A stretch of 64,000 nt of DNA from a virus (taxonomy: Duplodnaviria; Caudoviricetes). The stretch lies in IMG/VR virus record IMGVR_UViG_2910013374_000001, positions 1-64,000 of that record; one strand, 5' to 3'. Every line of letters begins with the position of its first letter. The stretch's first letter is position 1. The translations under genes were made by a program, and so were the position numbers. Below, one piece after another: positions 10,976 through 63,200 of the stretch. The notes under the pieces were generated by a model, which was not told the DNA's origin, did not search any database, and saw only the letters and a list, made by a program, of their open reading frames with translations.

Positions 10976-11764
10976 ATGAACAACGCACGCCGCGATGCTG
11001 AATGGTTGGCCTTCAACCGCCCTTCTGCAAGCCCTGCCCCCACTCCCACCCGCTCAGCGATCGTCAGCACCTGCAACGACATCCGCGATTTGCTGCTTGA
11101 GAAGAATCAGAAGTACGGGGATTCGGCTCTCAACCCCCAGCGCGTTTTCTCAGGCGCAGACCCCATCGAACAGATCAAGGTCCGCATCGACGACAAGCTC
11201 TCCAGGATCCAGACCACCGGATTCTCCGCCGCCGATGAAGACACACTCCAAGACCTCATTGGTTACTTGGTCCTTCTGAAGATTGCCCTCTCGAGATCCC
11301 CCGAGCCCATGGACCTCACCCGCACCCGCGAGCAGCTCCAGGACATGGTCGCGATGACCTTTGCTTCTGACTCGGCTCCAACCATCGATGAAGCATTCGA
11401 CCAGGACGAGGCTGAGTTCTTGGCGATGGGGGAAAAGTTCCGCATTCCCTCTTCCGTGATCCCTGGTCCGGACTGTGAAACCTATGTCCCTTTTGAAATG
11501 CGTCCGGAGGATATGTGGGAGGAGTATCAGGAGGACGTCTGGGAAGCAGAGCGCTCGCACTTCGCCGGCAACTACGCCGGTCCGCTGTACGCCCCGCACC
11601 CTGAGATCAAGAAGGACCTCAGCAAGTTTGAGCCCCACGAGATCTATGAAACTCACTACGTGGACGGCGCGATCCTCGGAACACAGAAGAACGGAGACGT
11701 CCGGATCCTTGGGACCTACAACCTCTACGACGAGATCAAGAAGGCTTCTCCGCTTGATCTGTAG
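10976..11764 (+). CDS. DUF1599 / nucleotide-modification-associated domain protein with acidic C-terminal extension
   Basis: LLEKNQKYGDS...RIDDKLSRI...EDTLQDLIGY. Confidence 0.7.
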   Translation: MNNARRDAEWLAFNRPSASPAPTPTRSAIVSTCNDIRDLLLEKNQKYGDSALNPQRVFSGADPIEQIKVRIDDKLSRIQTTGFSAADEDTLQDLIGYLVLLKIALSRSPEPMDLTRTREQLQDMVAMTFASDSAPTIDEAFDQDEAEFLAMGEKFRIPSSVIPGPDCETYVPFEMRPEDMWEEYQEDVWEAERSHFAGNYAGPLYAPHPEIKKDLSKFEPHEIYETHYVDGAILGTQKNGDVRILGTYNLYDEIKKASPLDL

Positions 11765-11818
11765 CTGTACGAGTTAGAACAGGGATCGGAAGCCTCGGCT
11801 ATTGCCGGGGCTTTTTTC

Positions 11819-24490: not shown

Positions 24491-24985
24491 ATGCACCGCT
24501 TTGCTCTTCCTTTGTTGCTCGGCCTTTCCGCTATTGGTGCGCCAGCTTTTGCTGGTGGCTCGGCACAGCAGAACTCCGTCAACAACCAGAACAACAGCGG
24601 CATGGTCAACCAGAGCCCAATAGGCGGGGTCAACCACAACACTCAGATCAACAACAACTCGATCAGTGAGTACAGCTTCGGGCCTGGGATCAACTGCCCA
24701 ACTCCTGGGCTTGCCTTCTCCTCCTCTTATGCAGGCGGGAGTGGTGGTTTCGATGGCTATTCAGCTTCTGTGTCCTATGTGATGCCGCTTGGTGGCTCCA
24801 TTGGCAGAGCTTGCAAGGAACTCGCCGTTGAGATCGCCAGGCAAAGGCAGCTCGACACCCAGGTCACGATGATCCACCAATGCGCAGGCTTTGCGGCTCA
24901 GGGCATTCAGATCGACGTTGCATCCTTTCCAGAGTTCAGCGTTTGCAGCGCTGTGCAGGTCAACGGGAACTCTGCTGTCAACTAG
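24491..24985 (+). CDS. secreted hypothetical protein (Asn/Gly-rich, Cys-containing)
   Basis: signal-peptide-like N-terminus (APAFA). Confidence 0.65.
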   Translation: MHRFALPLLLGLSAIGAPAFAGGSAQQNSVNNQNNSGMVNQSPIGGVNHNTQINNNSISEYSFGPGINCPTPGLAFSSSYAGGSGGFDGYSASVSYVMPLGGSIGRACKELAVEIARQRQLDTQVTMIHQCAGFAAQGIQIDVASFPEFSVCSAVQVNGNSAVN

Positions 24986-25087
24986 CTGTTCGAGTTAGAA
25001 CAGCAACAGGGAGCAGAAGGCACAGCCTCGGAGCCGGGTCTGCTCACACCCCCTGTCAATCCCCGGATGCTCTCTTCGCATGGCTCC

Positions 25088-52969: not shown

Positions 52970-54037
52970 ATGGCGTCGCTGGATCAGCTAAAGAAGAAGA
53001 TCCAGGGCAACCCCGTCCTCAAGGCCGCGATCGGCGATGGCTCGATTCGCATTATTTACAAGGAACCGCCCGTCATCGACGAGGACAGGTTGTTCCGCAC
53101 CTGGACGCTTGAAGTCCTGATCGTTGACGACAGCACGTACAACGGCCTGATCCAGAAGTCCCTCGAGACGCTTGGCTTCGATGCCAGCCGCAAAGGCGAC
53201 AAGATCACAGCCGTCCTCGATGAGGCCATCACCGCCAGTGAGCGGCAGGAGATGGAGGCCGACGACAGGCAAGAACGCAAGGCCGCAAAAGTCCAGGCAG
53301 ACGAACGCAGGGATGACCTGCTGATCAAGACGCTCGAGGCCATGCAGGCCAAGATCGATGCGCTCGAGGAGAAGATCGAGTTCATGTCCCTGGTGAAGGC
53401 CAAGGGGCAAGCAGGCCCGCCCGGACGACAAGGTCCGAGTGGTGCCGCGGGACGTGACGGCCAAGATCTCCTGGCTACGGACGCCAATCTTCAGGACCTG
53501 AACGACGTCTCAGACGAAACCCCCAAGCAGGGCCAAGTCGTGATGTATCAGGAGGCGACGGACTCCTGGGAGCTGCGCTTCCCCCCAATGGGAGGCGGCG
53601 GCGGCGGTGGTGGCGGAGCTGGTGGTGGTCAGGCCAAGCTTCAGCACTGGACCGAGACAAGTGAGGGGCACCTGGTTCCCAACGGCGAGGACCAGAACCT
53701 GGGCTCACCGACTCAGCCGGTTCGCGAGATCTATGTGACGGGCAACACCGTCTACATGGACAACAAGCCGCTATCGATCAACGAGAACGAGCGGATCTCA
53801 TTTGACGGCAATCAGCTGGGCTATGGCGACGGCGACGTTTCTGAAGCTCCTGAGAACTCGGTTGCTTATGTCCGTAGAGATGGCACCTGGATCCCTTTGG
53901 ACACGGTCAACACCGATATCGAGTTGCCCACCTCCATCACTGCATACCCCAGCAACTACGCCAACATCGTCATCGACCTCGACACCGGTTTGCTCGTTGC
54001 TGTGGAACCTGAGGACGTGATCAGCCCAGAGGGCTGA
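52970..54037 (+). CDS. structural protein with coiled coil, short collagen GXY repeat and fibre-like motifs
   Basis: GQAGPPGRQGPSGAAGRDG, LQDLNDV, NLGSPT.P.REIYV, SEAP...AYVR.DG.W. Confidence 0.65.
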   Translation: MASLDQLKKKIQGNPVLKAAIGDGSIRIIYKEPPVIDEDRLFRTWTLEVLIVDDSTYNGLIQKSLETLGFDASRKGDKITAVLDEAITASERQEMEADDRQERKAAKVQADERRDDLLIKTLEAMQAKIDALEEKIEFMSLVKAKGQAGPPGRQGPSGAAGRDGQDLLATDANLQDLNDVSDETPKQGQVVMYQEATDSWELRFPPMGGGGGGGGGAGGGQAKLQHWTETSEGHLVPNGEDQNLGSPTQPVREIYVTGNTVYMDNKPLSINENERISFDGNQLGYGDGDVSEAPENSVAYVRRDGTWIPLDTVNTDIELPTSITAYPSNYANIVIDLDTGLLVAVEPEDVISPEG

Positions 54038-54095: not shown

Positions 54096-55886
54096 ATGGC
54101 CAGTTTTAAGGTCTCGCAGTTCACTGGGGTGACAGACACGACAGCAGATTCTCTGCTGCTCCTGGCGTACACCGCAGACAACGGCGCAACTTATTCCACA
54201 CGAAAGATCCGCGTACAGGATCTTCTTGATGACCTCGCGCAAGATTCAGATCTCACCAGCCTGCTCACCCTTCAAGGTGTCCCTGCAGGATCAGCTGATC
54301 TGGGCAGCTTTACGGGCGACACGATCGCCGAGGGCGCAACAATCAAGGAAGCCCTTCAGGCCCTTGAGAGCAGCCTCGAACTTCAGCAAGGCGCTCTGAC
54401 TGCCGGCAACGGTGTCGAGCTCGATGCTCAGGGAAACATCTCTTTGAAGATCGCCACCGGCGGCTTCCTTGAGTTCTCTAGCGATGAGCTAAGTGTCAAG
54501 ACTCTCGACGAAGATGACTTCGTCAGCAACAGCGACAGCCACCTCCCGACTCAGCAGTCGGTCAAGGCCTACGTTGACACCCAGATCAGCACCCTTGGCA
54601 GCGTTTCTGAAGGCGCTTATGTCAAGAAGGACGGCTCTGTCGCCTTCGAGGGTGACCAGTCCATGGGCGGCTTTGAGCTGACCAACCTGGCGATCCCGAC
54701 ACAGGATTCTTCCGCTGCCACGAAGCAGTATGTGGACCTGGCCGTTCAAGGCCTGGACCTCAAAGAGTCCGTCCGTGCAGCCACAACTGTTGAGCTTGCT
54801 CTCGTCGGTGAGCAGGTTGTTGACGGTGTGTCCCTGACGGCAGGTGATCGCGTTCTGGTCAAGAGCCAGACCGACGCCAGCGAGAACGGCATCTACGTCG
54901 TCGACGCAGGCGCTTGGACCCGTGCAGAAGACGCCGATGGCAACCCCGACGGTGAAGTCACCTCAGGGATGTTCACCTTCGTCGAAGAAGGCACGGTCAA
55001 TGGTCAGAACGGCTTCTCGCTGTCGACTGCCAACCCGATCCTTGTAGGCGCAACGGATCTCACTTTTGTTCAGTTCTCTGGCGCTGGTCAGATCACCGCT
55101 GGAAACGGCATCTCGATCACTGGCAACGAGATCAGCGTTGCTCCTGCTGTCCTTTCGGACATCAGTGACCTGGCCTCCCTTACTGGAGTGAGCGGAAGCA
55201 GCGATCTCGGGACGTTTGCTGGCGACACGATCGCCGATTCCTCGACCATCAAGGAAGCTCTCCAATCCCTGGAGACCCTGGCCGAAGCAGTCGCCTCGAA
55301 CATCGCGACGAACGACACCGAACTGGCTGATCATGAGAGCCGGATCGCTGCCAACGAGCTGAACATCGCCTCGATCGATGGAATCAATACAGCTCAGTCC
55401 ACCCGCATCTCTGACCTTCAGGATGCTTTAGGTGCTGCTGACGGTGTGCAGGACATGGGCTCCTTTACGGGTGCCACCATCACCGACAACGGATCCGTCC
55501 GTGACGCCCTGCAAGAACTGGAAACAGCTCTCGAGCAGCTGGCACTTGACTCAGGCTCCGGCTCTGCTGTTGCAGCCAACTTGGCTGAGATCACCGCCCT
55601 GCGTTCCGCTCAAGGAACTGCTAACGGCGACATCAACCTCGGCACCTTCACCGGTGGCACGATCAGCGACAACGCCAGCGTGAAAACCGCCTTGAGCGAG
55701 TTGGAAGCTGCTGTTGAAGCTGGTGCTGGCAACTACGTCAGCAAAGGCGCCAACGTCACCGAATTGGTGGCTGGAACGGTTGCAGAGACCGAGCCTGCTA
55801 ACTACCTCTTCATGGTGGTTGACCAGGCCGATGGCTCAATCAAGGTCCTCGACAAGACTTTCATCGAGACCGAAGAATCCGCCTGA
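54096..55886 (+). CDS. tail fibre/whisker-like structural protein
   Basis: four copies of D(L/M)G.F.G.TI....(I/V)K.ALQ.LE; PTQQSVKAYVD, AATKQYVD, DRVLVK.Q...ENGIY. Confidence 0.75.
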   Translation: MASFKVSQFTGVTDTTADSLLLLAYTADNGATYSTRKIRVQDLLDDLAQDSDLTSLLTLQGVPAGSADLGSFTGDTIAEGATIKEALQALESSLELQQGALTAGNGVELDAQGNISLKIATGGFLEFSSDELSVKTLDEDDFVSNSDSHLPTQQSVKAYVDTQISTLGSVSEGAYVKKDGSVAFEGDQSMGGFELTNLAIPTQDSSAATKQYVDLAVQGLDLKESVRAATTVELALVGEQVVDGVSLTAGDRVLVKSQTDASENGIYVVDAGAWTRAEDADGNPDGEVTSGMFTFVEEGTVNGQNGFSLSTANPILVGATDLTFVQFSGAGQITAGNGISITGNEISVAPAVLSDISDLASLTGVSGSSDLGTFAGDTIADSSTIKEALQSLETLAEAVASNIATNDTELADHESRIAANELNIASIDGINTAQSTRISDLQDALGAADGVQDMGSFTGATITDNGSVRDALQELETALEQLALDSGSGSAVAANLAEITALRSAQGTANGDINLGTFTGGTISDNASVKTALSELEAAVEAGAGNYVSKGANVTELVAGTVAETEPANYLFMVVDQADGSIKVLDKTFIETEESA

Positions 55887-56192: not shown

Positions 56193-58016
56193 ATGAAGAT
56201 CTCAGGCTTTCAGGCAGTCCCGGACGGCTCGGACGAGTCCCTGTTGATGATCAGCTACACCGAAGACGGTGGCGCGACCTTCAAGACCCGGAAGATCCGG
56301 CTTGAAGACTTCATCGATGACTTTCGCGTCGAAGATCTGGCGAACGTGGGCGAGGACGTCGAGGCTTTCGATGGTGCCGTCCTGTCATGGAGCCAAGCGG
56401 ATCAGTACTGGCACGCGGTCAATCCAGCGATTGCAGCGGCCCCCGTTGCAGCGGGCTTCACCCTTGGCCTGACTCAGAAGCTTCTGGCTGAGAACCGCCA
56501 GATCGGAAAGACCGTTTTCGCTGTTCCTTACGTCTACAGCGATCGAGATGCCTTGGCGGTCGCACGCCCTGAAGGTGGAGTCGAGCGTGGCCGCTGTCAG
56601 GTCGTCAGCCTTGAAGACGGGAACACCCTCTTCGTTTACGCCAGCGGAAACGACTTCCTCACCCAGACGATCCAGGAAGGTCCGATCTTCCTGAGCAAGG
56701 GCGAGATCTATGTGATCGACGAGGTCGTCCCTGGCGCGATCATCACGATGGAAGAGGGCGGATATGGCATCTGCGAGCAGGGCAGCGGCGCCAGCGTGTC
56801 GCCCATGCCACTGCTCAGCCTTGCGCTCGGCTTCAACGATTCATTCTTTTTCGCCTTCAGGAACTCAGAAGGCCAGACCCCAGGTGGAACGGACCAAGGC
56901 TGGATCCATGTGGTGAATGGTCCGATCGCCTCGACGGTCAACCTGCAGTTCGGCAACGGCCTCCCGGTCGCGGACTACGACGGGAACTTCCAGATCGGAA
57001 TCGAGCTGGCCCCCTGGGAATATCGCCGCCTCTACACCCGAGGAAACACCGAATACCGGCTCACCAGTAGTCAGCTCTGCATGGCTGCACTGAACGCAAG
57101 CATGGGCCCGAGCCCGCGCTTCTACGACTCGCGGCTGATCATGCCGATGACGACTGACGGGATCACTTGGCCAAGGTCCGGATTCGTCTCGGCCCAGTTC
57201 CCCAGCACCCTGGTTCGCTACTGGAACAACGCTGGATTCAAGGGAGCTAACAACGATGGCAGTTTCGTCGTCAGCCCTGGCGCCCCGATCGACTCCGACA
57301 GCCAAGACGGCACAGCTGCCGCTCAGTCCGATTACGAGGCAGAAGGCGCCACCCGTTACAAGGCGGCAGGCGTGATCTCGGCCTACTCAGGCGCCGACTC
57401 AGCCGGTCTGGAAGCCACTCCTCTGCTGGCCACGAAGAACATGACCCAGCGGGTGGCCATCCCTTGTTTCGTCGCTGCTTCGGGTGATGGCGGCAACAAC
57501 GGGATTGCAGTCGCCTCTCCATTCGCTGGAAGTTTCCGCCTGTACGAATGGAACCCAGCCACCGGTCAGGCCGAAGTTGTCACGGTGGCCAACTCAAACA
57601 ACGCCTTCATCCAAGACATTCCCCTCGCGAGGCGAACGGGCTCGACACCAGCCGCGAACGCGGAGGAGCAGAACGTCCCCGCCTCAGCCATGGTCAGCCG
57701 GATCAGAGAAGGCGACAACTGCATCTGGACAGGAACTCAGGCGAGCGCTGGATTCAATGGCGGATATGTGGAAGCGACCGTCCCGATCACGGTGGTGGTG
57801 AACTCCGAGCAGAACAGCGCCAACAGCAGCACTCCTGATCGGTTCTATCGGGGAACAGGAGGACAACAGCTTCCCGGAATCCCCATCAATGACGACGAGA
57901 CCCTGATGGTCGGGATCACGCCTTTTGACATCAAGGCAGAGATCAGACGCGGAGATGACGGTCGCTTTTTTCGCCGAAAGATCAATCAATGGAACACGAC
58001 TTGGGAGATCGTCTGA
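56193..58016 (+). CDS. virion-associated/receptor-binding candidate sharing its N-terminal module with 54096
   Basis: KISGF...SLLMISYTEDGGATFKTRKIRLED resembles KVSQF...SLLLLAYTADNGATYSTRKIRVQD. Confidence 0.65.
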   Translation: MKISGFQAVPDGSDESLLMISYTEDGGATFKTRKIRLEDFIDDFRVEDLANVGEDVEAFDGAVLSWSQADQYWHAVNPAIAAAPVAAGFTLGLTQKLLAENRQIGKTVFAVPYVYSDRDALAVARPEGGVERGRCQVVSLEDGNTLFVYASGNDFLTQTIQEGPIFLSKGEIYVIDEVVPGAIITMEEGGYGICEQGSGASVSPMPLLSLALGFNDSFFFAFRNSEGQTPGGTDQGWIHVVNGPIASTVNLQFGNGLPVADYDGNFQIGIELAPWEYRRLYTRGNTEYRLTSSQLCMAALNASMGPSPRFYDSRLIMPMTTDGITWPRSGFVSAQFPSTLVRYWNNAGFKGANNDGSFVVSPGAPIDSDSQDGTAAAQSDYEAEGATRYKAAGVISAYSGADSAGLEATPLLATKNMTQRVAIPCFVAASGDGGNNGIAVASPFAGSFRLYEWNPATGQAEVVTVANSNNAFIQDIPLARRTGSTPAANAEEQNVPASAMVSRIREGDNCIWTGTQASAGFNGGYVEATVPITVVVNSEQNSANSSTPDRFYRGTGGQQLPGIPINDDETLMVGITPFDIKAEIRRGDDGRFFRRKINQWNTTWEIV

Positions 58017-58684
58017 TGGTTTCCCTTGACTTTGAATCGGCCCTGGCGGCCGCTTGCAGTGACGCGTCCTACGAGTACAAGCCGGTGGCTGGTTGCCGGC
58101 TGATTTGGGAGCACCACCAGGGCAGCGATTCCGTTGGGATCTATGCCTACCAAGACCAGCCAGATTGGCTTGTGTTGACCTTTCGAGGTTCAGAAGAGCT
58201 TCGTGACTGGAGCCGGAACTTCAGGGCATTCCCACGCCATCAGGGTGAGATTCACGGGGGATATGCCCGCTGTTGGGCGGGTCTGAGCCATGCGGTCGAG
58301 GAGAAGCTTGCTGGCCTTTCTTTCACTCATCTGACGATTACTGGCCACTCCATGGGCGGTGCAGTGGCGACCCTTGCGGCTTGGCAGCTGCCATGGGCTT
58401 GCCACTTGATCACTTTCGGCAGCCCTCGAGTGGTGAACCATTCGCTTGCGGAACGGATCCAAGAGAAGGTTCCAGTCGTGAGGCGCTTCGTTCATGGCGG
58501 CGATGTTGTCCCCCTCTATCCCGTTCTCCTTCATCGCCACGTCGGAGAGGTCCGGCGGATTGGTGCGGAGCGAACTTTGGTGCGGATGTTGCTCAAAGGT
58601 TTTGCTGATCACCACCCGAAGCGATATGCGGAACTGCTGGCCACTTCTTTGAAAACAACCGGTTGGGGTTCGAATCCCGACTGA
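58016..58684 (+). CDS. lipase class 3 (alpha/beta hydrolase)
   Basis: FRGS, IHGGY, GHSMGG nucleophile elbow, TFGSPRV, DVVP, DH. Confidence 0.88.
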   Translation: MVSLDFESALAAACSDASYEYKPVAGCRLIWEHHQGSDSVGIYAYQDQPDWLVLTFRGSEELRDWSRNFRAFPRHQGEIHGGYARCWAGLSHAVEEKLAGLSFTHLTITGHSMGGAVATLAAWQLPWACHLITFGSPRVVNHSLAERIQEKVPVVRRFVHGGDVVPLYPVLLHRHVGEVRRIGAERTLVRMLLKGFADHHPKRYAELLATSLKTTGWGSNPD

Positions 58685-58786: not shown

Positions 58787-59416
58787 ATGGCTTCCTGTTC
58801 TCAGTATTCAGCCGCATTCGGCTATCAAGTATTCATCACTCCTGTCAGCGCTTGCGGCGTTGACCTGAACTCAGTCAACGGCGGCGTCGGCGCTGGTGGC
58901 TTCATCGATCCCACAGCTCTTGCTCCTGCAACCGAAAAGATTGTCGAAGGCGCTAGCGCTGCTGAGATTCTCTTGGGCGATCCTGGTGCGAACATCGTTT
59001 ATGACAACGACACTGTAACGACCGAGACAGTGTTCAAGCTCCTGGGCCTGACCAACGCAGCTCTCGAGACTGACACCTCTTCCGAGACCGTCACCACCTA
59101 CGACACCGAGTCAAAGGGTTTCGACCAGAACGTCGCTACCTCCAAGAGCTGGAGCCTCAGCTTGGAAGGTGTGAGCCAGTTCGGCGACTCCGCCTACAAG
59201 GCGCTCCGTCTTCTTGAGCTCAACTCTGTTGCTGGTTCACTCAAGTGCAAGATCGGCCGCATCGGTCCTTCCGGAACTGTTGAGTCCGTTTACGGCTACG
59301 TGACCCTGACCAACTTCTCTGAATCAGTAGAAGCAGGTTCAATCGTTTCCTGGAGCGTGACAGCTACTGGCTACGGTCCGATCTCTATCGATCTGGACAA
59401 CAGCGCCAGCGTTTAG
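58787..59416 (+). CDS. major tail tube protein
   Basis: LTNAALET...TTYD...GF...VATSKSWSLSLEG...FSES..AGSIVSWSVT.TGYG; upstream of the tape measure gene. Confidence 0.78.
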   Translation: MASCSQYSAAFGYQVFITPVSACGVDLNSVNGGVGAGGFIDPTALAPATEKIVEGASAAEILLGDPGANIVYDNDTVTTETVFKLLGLTNAALETDTSSETVTTYDTESKGFDQNVATSKSWSLSLEGVSQFGDSAYKALRLLELNSVAGSLKCKIGRIGPSGTVESVYGYVTLTNFSESVEAGSIVSWSVTATGYGPISIDLDNSASV

Positions 59417-59983
59417 CTGACTGGAGGAGTCGCCTCCGCTTCAGTAACTGATGCCGGCATCGCTATCGCTGACGACATCTACTCGGCCCAGGCCCTGTCA
59501 ACTACAGGGTCCGGCGCTGATGCCACCGCAGACATCGAAGTCTCAGGTGGCACCGTTACCGGCTTCACCATCGTGAACGCCGGCACCGGTTACAAGGTTG
59601 CAGACCAACTGTCCGCAACCCTTCCAGGAGAGGACACCATCACTCCTGGAACTGGCGAGGTTCTCACCACCAGCTTCACCGCTGGCGATGGCCTGGACGC
59701 AGCAGACGAGACCCTTGTTGGTGTCGCCTCTTCTTCCACTACATCGATCTCTGGTGCTGGAGCCAGCTTCGACATCACCATCACCGGTGGTGCAGTTACC
59801 GACGTCCAGCTCAATGCTGCTGGCGCCGACTACGAAGCAGCCGACGAAATCACAATCTTTGCTTCCGATCTTGGAGCAACTACAGGCACCGATCTGGTCA
59901 TCACTGTCGCCACCGTCGACGAAGACACCATTTCAGCAGGTCCAGACGTCACCATCACGGCAGCCGTCTCAACCATCGCCTGA
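59417..59983 (+). CDS. in-frame C-terminal extension of the tail tube (probable stop-codon readthrough), two beta-rich repeats
   Basis: the frame stays open directly after TAG for 188 codons; first ATG/GTG/TTG only at 59573, in the middle of a repeat. Confidence 0.72.
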   Translation: MTGGVASASVTDAGIAIADDIYSAQALSTTGSGADATADIEVSGGTVTGFTIVNAGTGYKVADQLSATLPGEDTITPGTGEVLTTSFTAGDGLDAADETLVGVASSSTTSISGAGASFDITITGGAVTDVQLNAAGADYEAADEITIFASDLGATTGTDLVITVATVDEDTISAGPDVTITAAVSTIA

Positions 59984-60074
59984 TCATCGACCTGAAGTCC
60001 CCCACCTACCAATCCGCGACTCATCGGCAAGGACAAGGACCACGGAATACCAGGGGCCAGTTGGCCCCTTTTTT

Positions 60075-60248
60075 ATGCACGTTCCCCAGCTGGTTTATGA
60101 CCAACGGCTTGCGATCTGTAGGGGTTGCATCAGATGGCTACCAAGTGATCGCTGTAGTGCTTGTGGCTGCTTCATGTCAGTCAAGGCCAGGGCTGCACAC
60201 ATCAAGTGCCCGTTGGGGTTTTGGGAGACCTGGGCGCCGGAAGCCTGA
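60075..60248 (+). CDS. small Cys-rich protein (DUF6171-like)
   Basis: RLAICRGC...C..CGCFM..K......CP.G.W. Confidence 0.7.
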   Translation: MHVPQLVYDQRLAICRGCIRWLPSDRCSACGCFMSVKARAAHIKCPLGFWETWAPEA

Positions 60249-60271
60249 AAGGACGTTGAACAGGCGACCAG

Positions 60272-63200
60272 ATGTCAGGTGGACTTGGAGAAGTCAAGGT
60301 ATCGCTAGGACTTGACACGTCCAAGGCCAAAGGCCAGATGGCGGAGTTCTTCTCCGGCATTGGAAAGAACCCTGTTCAGAATCCTTTTAAGGGCCTCGAC
60401 GAAAGCCTCAAGAAAACAGGCCAGGCCGCTAAGACACTTACAGATCAATTCAAGCCCTTACAAAAGAGTGATCTCCTCAAGGGCATCACAACTTCAACCA
60501 AGCAGGCCAAGACAGATCTCGACAGCCTGGGAACCGCGGGCAAGACCCTCAAGACAACGCTCCAAGGCTTAGGGCAAGGCGGAAATGGACTCAAGACTCT
60601 TGGCACTGACGCCAAGACGGCCTACGGCTCCGTTCAGAATCTCTCTACAGGCGCGAAGACTCTCGGGGCTGCAATCACAGGCCTGAATAGGGCCAAGCCC
60701 CTGCCTGGGATGAAGGCGACGCTGGACCAGATCAATGGCACAGCAAGAACAACCACCACAACCTTCGGGACGCTCAAGACTGCGCTCAACAATGCAGGGC
60801 AAGGCGGCAAGTCGCTGACCCAGTTGCCCACAGGGCTCAACGCCGTCAAGACAGCGCTTCAGGGTGTCAAGAATTCAACGACCGGTGTCGGCACCGAATT
60901 CACGAAGTCCAAGACCGTTGGTGAGGGATTCCTCGACTCAATCAGGAACGGCTTCAAGAATCTGGCGACTGGCATTCCTCAGGGCATCGGCCTCGCACTC
61001 GGCAACGCGATCCTGCAGCCCCTGAAAAACATCGCTGGCGTTATTCCTGCAGCGGTTGAAGAGTTCAGAGCGCTTGATGAGCAGCTCCGCTTAACCCTTG
61101 AAATTTCTGGCGCAGGTGCTTCGAAGTTTGGTGAGCTGCAGCAAGCAGTTCTGGACGTTTCGAGTCAGTTCGCAGCGACGGCTGTCGAGGTCGCAAAGGT
61201 TCAGCAGTCCTTGGCTCGCGCTGGATTCTCGCTCGATGAAATCAAGCAGGCGACCACCGGGGTCATCCAAGGCGCAGAAGCAACTGGCACCAGTTACGAG
61301 CGAATGGGCGACATCGTCGTCTCAGCTCTTGGTGCATTTGGTCTTGCTGCAAGTGACTCGACTGACGTTGTTGACACCCTGACGGTCGCAGCCAACAGCT
61401 CCAACCAGTCAGTCAATGACTTGGGAGAGGCGATCAAATACGTCGGCCCGATCGCGGCATCGACAGGTCAGTCATTGCAAGACGTTTCCCTGGCCCTCGA
61501 ACTGCTAGCCAACAACGGCATCAGGGGTTCACAGGCAGGCACCAGCTTCCGCACGATTCTGACCAACCTCCAGATCGCAGCATCAGGCGCGGGCGAGGAG
61601 TTCATGGGCCTGACTCGAGGCTCCACGCGACTGGCCAAAACCCTGAAGGTGATCGGCGCTGACATGACCGACGCCAATGGCGAACTTCTAACGGGTCGCG
61701 ACTTGATCGAGGAGCTGCAGCGCTCCATGGAAGGTCTGTCGTCTGGAGAGAAGGCGCTGGTCTCCAAAGCGCTTGCCGGCGCTGAAGGGCTGCCCGCAAT
61801 GAACTCCCTGATCAACGCCAGTACAGAGCAGATCGACAAGTTGGCCGAAGGTCTTGAGAACAGGGCAGGCAAAGCAGCTGAGCAGGCGGAGAACGCACTG
61901 GCCGGTCTGTCTGGTTCGTTCAAAGTCCTCGAGTCGAATGTCTCGGCCGCCCTGGTTCAGATCGGCGCGATCATCGCGACAGCACTGAAGCCGCTGATCG
62001 ATGCGGCCACTGCAGTCCTGGCAGCTCTGAATGGGCTCCCCGGTCCGATCAAGAACCTCCTCACCACCCTCGCTCTGCTCGGTACTGCCATCGGCGCGAC
62101 TGTGGTGGCGCTCAATCTCCTCAAAGGCACCAAGGTCTCGGGCTTCTTCCTGGAAGCGGCTGCCGGTGTCAAGAAATGGGCCGCATCGATTGCCACAGCA
62201 AACATCGGAGGGACTCTCACGACCTGGGTGAGCTCGCTCGCTGTTTTTGGGAAGAAGGTCAAGGCCACACTCATCTTGGGCCTCACCAATGCGACCAAGA
62301 GCCTGAACGACTTCAGGAAAACGCTCTCGAGCATCAAGGTCGGGAACATCCTGAACAACCTCACCGAGGGCTTCTCGAACTTCTTCAAGGTCGCCACTAA
62401 GAAGGGCATCCCTGCGGCGATGAACGGCCTCAAGGTCGGAGCAAACGGAGCTTTGGGTGCGCTTAAGGGTCTCTTGCCTGCGATCGGAGGCTTTGTAACC
62501 GCTGCGGCTCCGTTTATCGCAATCGGTGCAGGCATTGTTGCCACATGGGTCGCCATTCAACGCCGTTGGGAAGCAGCCAAGGCCGTTGCAGATCCGCTGG
62601 CGGATTCACAGTCATCGCTTGACGATGCACTTCGCAAGGCGGGAGAAGGCGGAGAAGTCGCCGCCGAGGGCTACACCGGATGGGGCAAAGCCATCGAGGA
62701 CGCACTTGGTCCGCTCGATCGCTTACTAAGTATTGCCAGCCCCCTATACAACGGCATCAAGCTCGTCGCCGAGGTTCTCGGCAAGGTCGACAACTGGAGC
62801 CGCAACAACGCCGCTGTCCAGCAGGTCAACGACGAGTATGCGAAGTTCCAGAAGTCGATGGATGCGACCAATCGGAAGATCAGCGAGAACCGCGATGCGA
62901 TGTCACGACTCAACCCGGAGTCGGAAGAGTTCGGGCGGCTGGCAACTGAGAACGCTGAACTGATCAAGGCTGAGAAGAATGCCGTTCAGGACCGCATCAA
63001 AGCGATCGACAGCACGATCGCAAAACTCAAAGAGAACGAAGGAGCGAACCGCAGAACGATCGATGCCCTCGAGGAGATGAAGGGCAAGTACCAGGATCAG
63101 CTCCCCGTCATCGAGGCGAACGAAGCCTTGCTGCGTGAAGAAAGACAGACCTATGAGGAGCTCAGCGGATCTGTTCAGAACTACACGCTGAGGCTTGATG

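Follow-up and report, generated by a model that had tools for sequence, protein, structure and literature searches.

A conserved UAG context and a constrained in-frame extension point to stop-codon readthrough in a family of siphovirus tail tube genes

The stretch of DNA analysed here (the window) comprises 64,000 nucleotides (nt), positions 1 to 64,000 of the IMG/VR virus record IMGVR_UViG_2910013374_000001 (Duplodnaviria; Caudoviricetes), and is part of a genome that consists of a single contig of 106,484 bp. It contains a gene for a tail tube (major tail) protein that ends at a TAG stop codon, and directly behind this stop the same reading frame continues through a long open extension. A preliminary description made from the sequence alone had proposed that the UAG is read through, assisted by a stem-loop that follows it, so that tube subunits of 209 and 398 amino acids are produced. 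We have analysed the locus and its relatives computationally, and all features reported in that description were found in the sequence. The features of the locus are listed in Table 1.

Table 1. Positions of the tube gene, its extension and associated elements in the window
Feature	Position	Strand	Basis
Tail tube (major tail) protein gene, 209 codons, short standard product	58787..59413	+	Pfam, PHROG and fold matches
Proposed readthrough signal, T-TAG-CTG-ACT-GGAGG	59413..59427	+	Logo over 39 non-redundant lineages
In-frame extension, 188 sense codons, two repeated all-beta domains	59417..59980	+	Translation, AlphaFold2, dN/dS, phrog_6005
Hairpin: GGAGG (59423–27), loop AGTCG (59428–32), CCTCC (59433–37)	59423..59437	+	Sequence, predicted fold
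Extension domain 1	about 59423–59686	+	AlphaFold2
Extension domain 2	about 59705–59980	+	AlphaFold2
TGA, end of predicted long product (398 amino acids)	59981..59983	+	Sequence, translation
Intrinsic-terminator-like hairpin (60052–60069) with T run	60052..60075	+	Sequence; sole such site downstream

The tube gene and the frame behind its stop

The open reading frame (ORF) of the tube gene, stop included, spans 58787–59416 and closes with GTT TAG, the TAG lying at 59414–16. Profile, fold and gene order agree that it encodes a siphovirus tail tube protein of the lambda gpV type. The product matches Pfam PF06199 (Phage_tail_2) with 38 bits (cut-off 23.8; E 2e-9) and phrog_38654 with an E value of 6e-76. 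Its AlphaFold2 model, with a predicted local distance difference test score (pLDDT) of 83, has lambda gpV (7t4f_A) as the best match in the Protein Data Bank (PDB; Foldseek E 1e-5 over 263 aligned columns), followed by the tube proteins of monocin, 80alpha and SPP1, and the tape measure gene (PF10145, E 5e-40) begins just downstream at 60272. Among described phages, the tube protein is closest to those of the cyanosiphoviruses P-SS2 (52% identity) and S-CBS2 (44%), and the virus is regarded as a marine cyanophage.

Behind the TAG the frame opens with CTG ACT GGA GGA, in frame 0. The 188 open codons given in the preliminary description can be read in the sequence up to the TGA at 59981–83, and its count of 52 codons before any standard start is likewise correct, the first ATG, GTG or TTG in this frame being the GTG at 59573, codon 53. 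The two repeats that it had noticed are both present in the translation and match two all-beta domains of ∼90 residues each, which AlphaFold2 predicts when the extension is modelled alone (pLDDT 87). The extension matches phrog_6005, annotated as ‘virion structural protein’ (E 4e-15). Searches for its domains found no Pfam family at E 0.1 and no PDB structure with Foldseek at E 0.001 or better, and VIA-align (wide) gave a best Z of 4.5, to small beta-barrels, with no clear PDB match. Immunoglobulin (Ig)-like, fibronectin type III (FN3) and carbohydrate-binding decoration families gave no profile match, the best fold score again being Z 4.5, and matches in the ESM Atlas fall in unnamed clusters only. 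Since the layout of tube domain and C-terminal addition resembles that of lambda gpV, the two domains probably project from the tube and, by this analogy, probably sit on its surface as decoration.

The phage uses TAG as a normal stop codon. TAG ends 25 of the 104 ORFs of at least 150 codons in the 106-kb genome, including a gene of 2,678 codons with just 8 open codons behind its TAG. The sole transfer RNA (tRNA) of the genome is Met-CAT. A suppressor tRNA with a CUA anticodon was found neither in this genome nor in that of S-CBS2, which is without any tRNA gene. Genome-wide reassignment of TAG was rejected on these grounds, in keeping with the preliminary description. A frameshifted extension of the SPP1 gp17.1* type was also rejected, as the extension is in frame 0 and no slippery site was found; the sequence TAGCTGA moreover places a TGA in the +1 frame behind the tube gene. 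Editing of the UAG from A to I was rejected on the site requirement of TadA, whose sites need UACG, a sequence not present at the tube stop.

Three states of the tube gene among its relatives

Related tube genes were gathered by protein similarity, blind to the junction sequence, from IMG/VR, a metagenome collection and phage records. This yielded 161 loci, and the lineage counts given here and below are non-redundant (39 lineages with an extension and 54 without). Conservation of the in-frame stop, which the preliminary description had put forward as a check, proved complete, with TAG ending the tube gene in 39 of 39 extension lineages, each followed by an open in-frame extension of 81–191 codons. 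The tube proteins of these lineages range down to about 45% identity with that of the window. Their extensions end at TAA (26 lineages) or TGA (13), and never at TAG. In the 54 lineages without an extension the tube gene stops at TGA (51) or TAA (3), often as TGATAA, and none uses TAG; the base before the stop (−1) is C in 36 of them and the base after it (+4) is T in 42.

A third state was found in a search of 5.8 billion proteins, in which ∼40 relatives have the tube and between one and four copies of the extension domain in a single uninterrupted frame; P0002, for instance, is a protein of 393 amino acids with 67% identity over 95% of the query. Because so many relatives carry the direct fusion, the extension domain is a genuine C-terminal module of the tube family. 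The fused junctions read N-L-x-G-P and do not correspond to a translated TAG. The TAG state is scattered over the tree of tube domains, where it takes at least five changes, four of which are forced by well-supported branches.

The extension evolves as a coding sequence. Its pairwise ratio of nonsynonymous to synonymous divergence (dN/dS) is 0.15–0.37, with dS between lineages of 0.8–2.2, so that synonymous sites are near saturation. Between the window and the relative L007, dN/dS is 0.25 for extension codons 1–52 and 0.34 for the remainder (dS 0.8–1.0). This substitution pattern indicates that the extension is translated in frame 0 and is under purifying selection, including the 52 codons that precede any start. 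In the model, codons 1–52 form four strands of domain 1 (pLDDT 82–94), and a product begun at the GTG at 59573 would therefore have a broken first domain.

The nearest neighbours of the window on the tube tree (P0002, P0003 and P0010) are direct fusions, as could be expected if the extension were an unexpressed, decaying remnant of a fused ancestor and its TAG had arisen by nonsense mutation or misassembly. However, 39 non-redundant lineages share this stop and its context; their extensions contain no further stops and show the low dN/dS at a dS of at least 0.8, and RNA structure appears to be selected directly past the stop (see below). Three marine metagenome runs, each from a different study, also have contigs (low-share contig sets) that span 59414–16 without a difference. 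We regard loss of expression as very improbable, and a sequencing error or private mutation, which the preliminary description had named as grounds for dismissing its proposal, does not account for a TAG shared by 39 lineages and the contigs of three runs.

The position of putative transcription terminators follows the presence of the extension. In relatives without one, a terminator-like site lies ∼43 nt past the tube stop at 88 of 91 loci; in relatives with one, such a site lies past the extension stop in 28 of 37 and inside the extension in 1 of 37. As the terminator-like site follows the extension and nearly never interrupts it, tube and extension appear to form one transcription unit. The statement of the preliminary description that a terminator comes only after 59983 is borne out by the window, where the only downstream terminator-like site is that at 60052.

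Stop-codon context and RNA structure behind the stop

Aligned on the tube stop, the extension lineages share a near-invariant linear motif, T-TAG-YTG-AYW-GGAGG. In the logo of the 39 lineages, T occupies position −1 in 38, TAG positions +1 to +3 in all, C position +4 in 37 (T in 2) and TGA positions +5 to +7 in all. Position +8 is C in 33 and T in 6, position +9 is T in 36 and A in 3, and positions +10 to +14 read GGAGG, with GGGGG, AGAGG, AGAAG and GGAAG as variants. In Escherichia coli, U at +4 gives the strongest termination and C the weakest.

Four observations place this constraint on the nucleotides and not on the encoded residues alone. As noted above, the rest of the extension is close to saturated at its synonymous sites. 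Within the motif the Leu of extension codon 1 is encoded only by CTG or TTG, and the Gly of codon 3 by GGA in 33 of the 39 lineages. The homologous Asn codon of the tube is AAT before the TAG of S-CBS2 versus AAC before the TGA of S-CRES3, a TGA-ending relative. Finally, the fused relative L008, the single fused junction read as DNA, keeps the residues T-G-G-I, which it encodes as ACT GGT GGC ATC, without GGAGG.

The exact 14-mer of the junction occurs once in the window, besides one chance-level site with two mismatches, and at 90 sites in IMG/VR. We examined 81 of the IMG/VR sites. Forty of them mark the end of a tube gene from the same family, and the 39 of these with complete context all have an in-frame extension of at least 81 codons. 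The other 41 examined sites showed no comparable ORF context.

Departures from the consensus exist in nature. Variants of the purine run (AGAGG, AGAAG, GGAAG and GGGGG, in L199, L232, L234, L208 and L216–L218) still precede intact extensions, and codon 1 is TTG in L191 and L211; the extensions behind such variant signals are intact at 83–185 codons. These natural variants amount to a ready-made mutant series for reporter work. In one metagenome relative (L255:704-1300) TAA replaces TAG before a motif that is intact in all other respects (TAACTGACTGGAGGT). Past this TAA the contig has 10 more codons, which turn AT-rich, and judged from this sequence the site may have decayed or been switched off.

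The predicted hairpin of the window begins 6 nt past the stop codon. When the 39 lineages were folded from +8 onward, a stem started at +8 to +13, that is 5–10 nt past the stop, in 38 of them. This spacing, at the mRNA entrance of the ribosome, is where stimulators of frameshifting and readthrough sit. To gauge structure beyond coding needs, sequences were compared with synonymous shuffles that preserve the protein and the codon pool. In nearly every lineage the first 26 codons past the stop are more stable than their shuffles (mean z −2.2; Wilcoxon p 1.6e-10). Other segments of the same genes gave z values near 0 (three in the tube and one later in the extension) or of −0.6 (the last segment). 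The comparison indicates that RNA structure is selected just past the stop and not, or at most weakly, elsewhere in these genes.

The form of that structure is less uniform than its position. A local GGAGG hairpin is present only in some lineages, those that encode G-G-I/V-A-S, and in the others the partner of GGAGG lies farther away. The pairing probability of GGAGG taken alone is barely above that of synonymous shuffles (0.84 versus 0.81). Pairing of GGAGG with the anti-Shine–Dalgarno sequence while the stop is being decoded was rejected as improbable on geometric grounds: being downstream, the motif would lie in the entry channel.

Possible routes to the predicted long product, known systems and neighbouring genes

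The features by which programmed readthrough can be recognized from sequence are present in this tube family, namely a conserved in-frame stop, a coding frame behind it without a start of its own, and a context and 3′ structure beyond what coding needs. We consider it likely, on this comparative evidence, that context-programmed readthrough of the UAG yields a major tube subunit of 209 amino acids and a minor one of 398, and the proposal of the preliminary description is the one that best fits the relatives. In its favour, too, the record of S-CBS2 labels the extension ORF (gp020) ‘structural protein’, a label that reportedly goes back to mass spectrometry of virions. We propose that most ribosomes would stop at the UAG at 59414–16 and release the 209-residue subunit, while a minority would decode it by an ordinary near-cognate tRNA and run on in frame to the TGA at 59981. 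The 398-residue subunit with its two extra beta domains would then assemble together with the short one into the tail tube, as a decorated minority. The extent of the leak would be set by the conserved signal, made up of U before the stop, C at +4 as a weak termination context and the spacer CUGAYW, with the purine run GGAGG as the 5′ half of a stem that would sit at the mRNA entrance of the ribosome. The context, the structure and the coding constraint are properties of the sequences; from them we infer the occurrence of readthrough, the action of the motif and the decoration of the tube surface.

The extension could instead be a separate small protein that binds the tube non-covalently, made by termination-reinitiation or from an independent start, which could be the CTG beside the stop, a codon that follows GGAGG or, for the window, the GTG at 59573. 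The sequence GGAGG[T] fits the anti-Shine–Dalgarno, and GTG or TTG stands at codon 8 or 9, ∼10 nt past this Shine–Dalgarno-like run, in 8 of 39 lineages (S-CBS2, L007, L096 and a few others). Gene callers do call such ORFs. The S-CBS2 ORF gp020 is called from an internal GTG, and automatic calling turns the last 136 extension codons of the window (59573–59983) into a separate GTG-started ORF, whose truncated sequence is exactly what the ESM Atlas holds.

However, these starts are not general. No ATG, GTG or TTG occurs anywhere in the extension in 12 of the 39 lineages, or within its first 20 codons in 22, and GTG or TTG is found at codons 6–9 in 9 lineages and absent there in 30, so the conserved start of a coupled downstream gene is not seen. 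Codon 8 encodes Val or Leu with free synonymous choice (GTC in 8 lineages and GTG in 4, with GTT, CTC and CTG also used), and because GTG and TTG alternate freely with the other codons no start codon is selected at codons 8–9. Extension codon 1 is never ATG or GTG, and for a start at the CTG the GGAGG lies downstream and so cannot serve as its Shine–Dalgarno sequence. A start at 59573 would forgo codons 1–52, which are under purifying selection and supply four strands of domain 1. A separate protein would also leave the conserved frame, the TAG, the T at −1 and the C at +4 unexplained, and it sits poorly with the covalent fusion of domain and tube in ∼40 relatives. Independent initiation, by which the preliminary description had expected its proposal might fall, is thus improbable as the general explanation, 12 of 39 extensions being devoid of any canonical start. 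Both S-CBS2 gp020 and the 136-residue ORF of the window are probably mis-annotated.

Other forms of recoding at the same site would give a nearly identical product and fit the comparative evidence equally well. These are a short in-frame hop over the UAG and decoding by a host amber suppressor or specialized tRNA. For a hop, however, the last sense codon varies (GCT, AAT, AGT, GTT, ACT, GAT or GAG) and no matching landing codon was seen downstream in the aligned junctions; translational bypass of the T4 gene 60 type was rejected for the same reasons. As for suppression, the absence of a CUA-anticodon tRNA from the phage genome and from S-CBS2 speaks against a phage-borne one, and a strong host suppressor would also extend the many other TAG-ended genes of the phage. 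Taken together we judge these routes unlikely.

Several points weigh against context-programmed readthrough, or at least limit it. To our knowledge, there are few bacterial precedents for efficient, context-driven readthrough of UAG in which no suppressor tRNA takes part. The sequence GGAGG[T] forms a perfect Shine–Dalgarno core, and with GTG or TTG present at codons 6–9 in 9 of 39 lineages, internal initiation may add a product in some phages; a virion protein of S-CBS2 could also stem from the GTG at codon 8 of its extension. Shared ancestry and possible spread of the junction by recombination mean that the lineage counts are not fully independent. The stem-loop of the preliminary description stands only in part as a stimulator. 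The hairpin is present, a stem follows the stop in 38 of 39 lineages and the region is stable against shuffles, but the form of the stem and its 3′ partner vary between lineages, and in the window itself stability past the stop does not exceed that of synonymous shuffles (z −0.08). Because this excess is nil, more of the effect in the window may come from the linear motif.

A more far-reaching reading, which we regard as possible but doubtful, is that T-UAG-CUG-AYU-GGAGG and the stem form a dedicated, portable stimulator of readthrough that acts by a specific contact of mRNA and ribosome and not merely through a weak +4 base. Equally tentative is the nature of such a contact, which would involve the nucleotides from +4 to +9 together with the Shine–Dalgarno-like purine run at the mRNA entrance. 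If true, the motif would define a new class of recoding signals in bacteria, by which phages would set the dose of decorated subunits and which would have been passed on or have arisen anew several times within the cyanosiphoviruses.

Although programmed readthrough is amply documented for eukaryotes and RNA viruses, almost no bacterial cases are known to us besides phage Q-beta, selenocysteine and pyrrolysine. In Q-beta, a leaky UGA at the end of the coat gene is read by tRNA-Trp to give A1, a minority extended subunit of the particle. The tube case resembles A1 in having a C-terminally extended minority form of a major virion protein that would need no suppressor tRNA, but Q-beta is a single-stranded RNA phage with a coat protein and UGA, whereas here a double-stranded DNA phage, a tail tube and UAG are combined with a conserved 14-nt context and a stem. 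In SPP1 the two tube subunits gp17.1 and gp17.1* are made from one gene by frameshifting. Frameshifting also produces tail or capsid extensions in the Listeria phages A118, A500 and PSA and the Lactobacillus phage A2 (Atkins et al. 2016, PMC5009743). These systems likewise derive two subunits from one gene, the minor and longer one with an extra C-terminal domain, but they use a +1 or −1 frameshift, whereas the extension described here lies in frame 0 behind a stop. Lambda gpV shares the layout of tube domain and C-terminal decoration, which is constitutive there as in the ∼40 fused relatives; gpV is however a single ORF, and its C-terminal domain is Ig-like, whereas the extension domains gave neither a Pfam match nor a clear PDB match.

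Closer in signal are eukaryotic viruses. The gag-pol UAG of murine leukaemia virus is followed by a spacer of 6–8 nt and then a pseudoknot, and tobamoviruses use the hexanucleotide context UAG-CAR-YYA. Both parallel the tube junction in having UAG with either a spacer and then structure at the mRNA entrance or a defined 3′ context that starts with C. They are, however, decoded by eukaryotic ribosomes with eRF1, whereas the tube junction would meet a bacterial ribosome and RF1, and has simple, variable stems with a Shine–Dalgarno-like 5′ arm and a conserved U at −1. Phages with genome-wide recoding of TAG or TGA have also been noted (PMC7918605). They share with the reading proposed here that a TAG within a late structural gene is decoded as an amino acid, but they have many in-frame stops and usually a suppressor tRNA, whereas here there is one site per genome and neither of the two phages checked has such a tRNA.

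The open-access literature searched contained no account of readthrough in tail tube genes or cyanosiphoviruses, and the combination of a double-stranded DNA phage, a tail tube, UAG and a defined bacterial 3′ context differs from each of the systems compared. A compact conserved UAG signal with ∼40 natural variants, suited to direct use in a reporter, comes with natural controls in the fused and strong-stop relatives. Members of one tube family are bare, fully decorated or, probably, partly decorated, which makes the dose of decoration a testable trait. For annotation, the extension is at present split off as a short ORF or missed, and dozens of marine cyanosiphovirus records would need correcting.

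Some observations concern the surroundings of the tube gene. Between the tube and tape measure genes (59984–60271 in the window; also in L001–L003) there is no pair of tail assembly chaperone genes of the lambda G/GT type with a −1 frameshift, and in this phage family the interval holds either the putative readthrough extension or a terminator only. In S-CRES3 a ‘tail assembly protein’ is instead annotated upstream of the tube gene. The gene that immediately precedes the tube gene of the window, inside the virion module, encodes a class-3 lipase (57989–58684; Pfam PF01764, E 9e-21; phrog_21992, esterase/lipase). Two fibre-like virion genes precede it at 52970–54037 and 54096–55886. A collagen-like G-x-x run and a poly-Gly tract occur in one of them, and the other matches phrog_24595 and tail-fibre and head-decoration PHROGs and contains repeated segments.

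Similar-looking words also follow other stops of the window. Two ORFs of the early region end in TAG within near-identical stretches of 15 bases, TAGCTGT[A/T]CGAGTTA (11762–11779 and 24983–25000), and TTCGAACAG-like words occur past other nearby stops (13947 and 18779). TAGCTGT[A/T]CGAGTTA may have a regulatory role as a repeated intergenic motif, with no relation to the signal at the tube stop.

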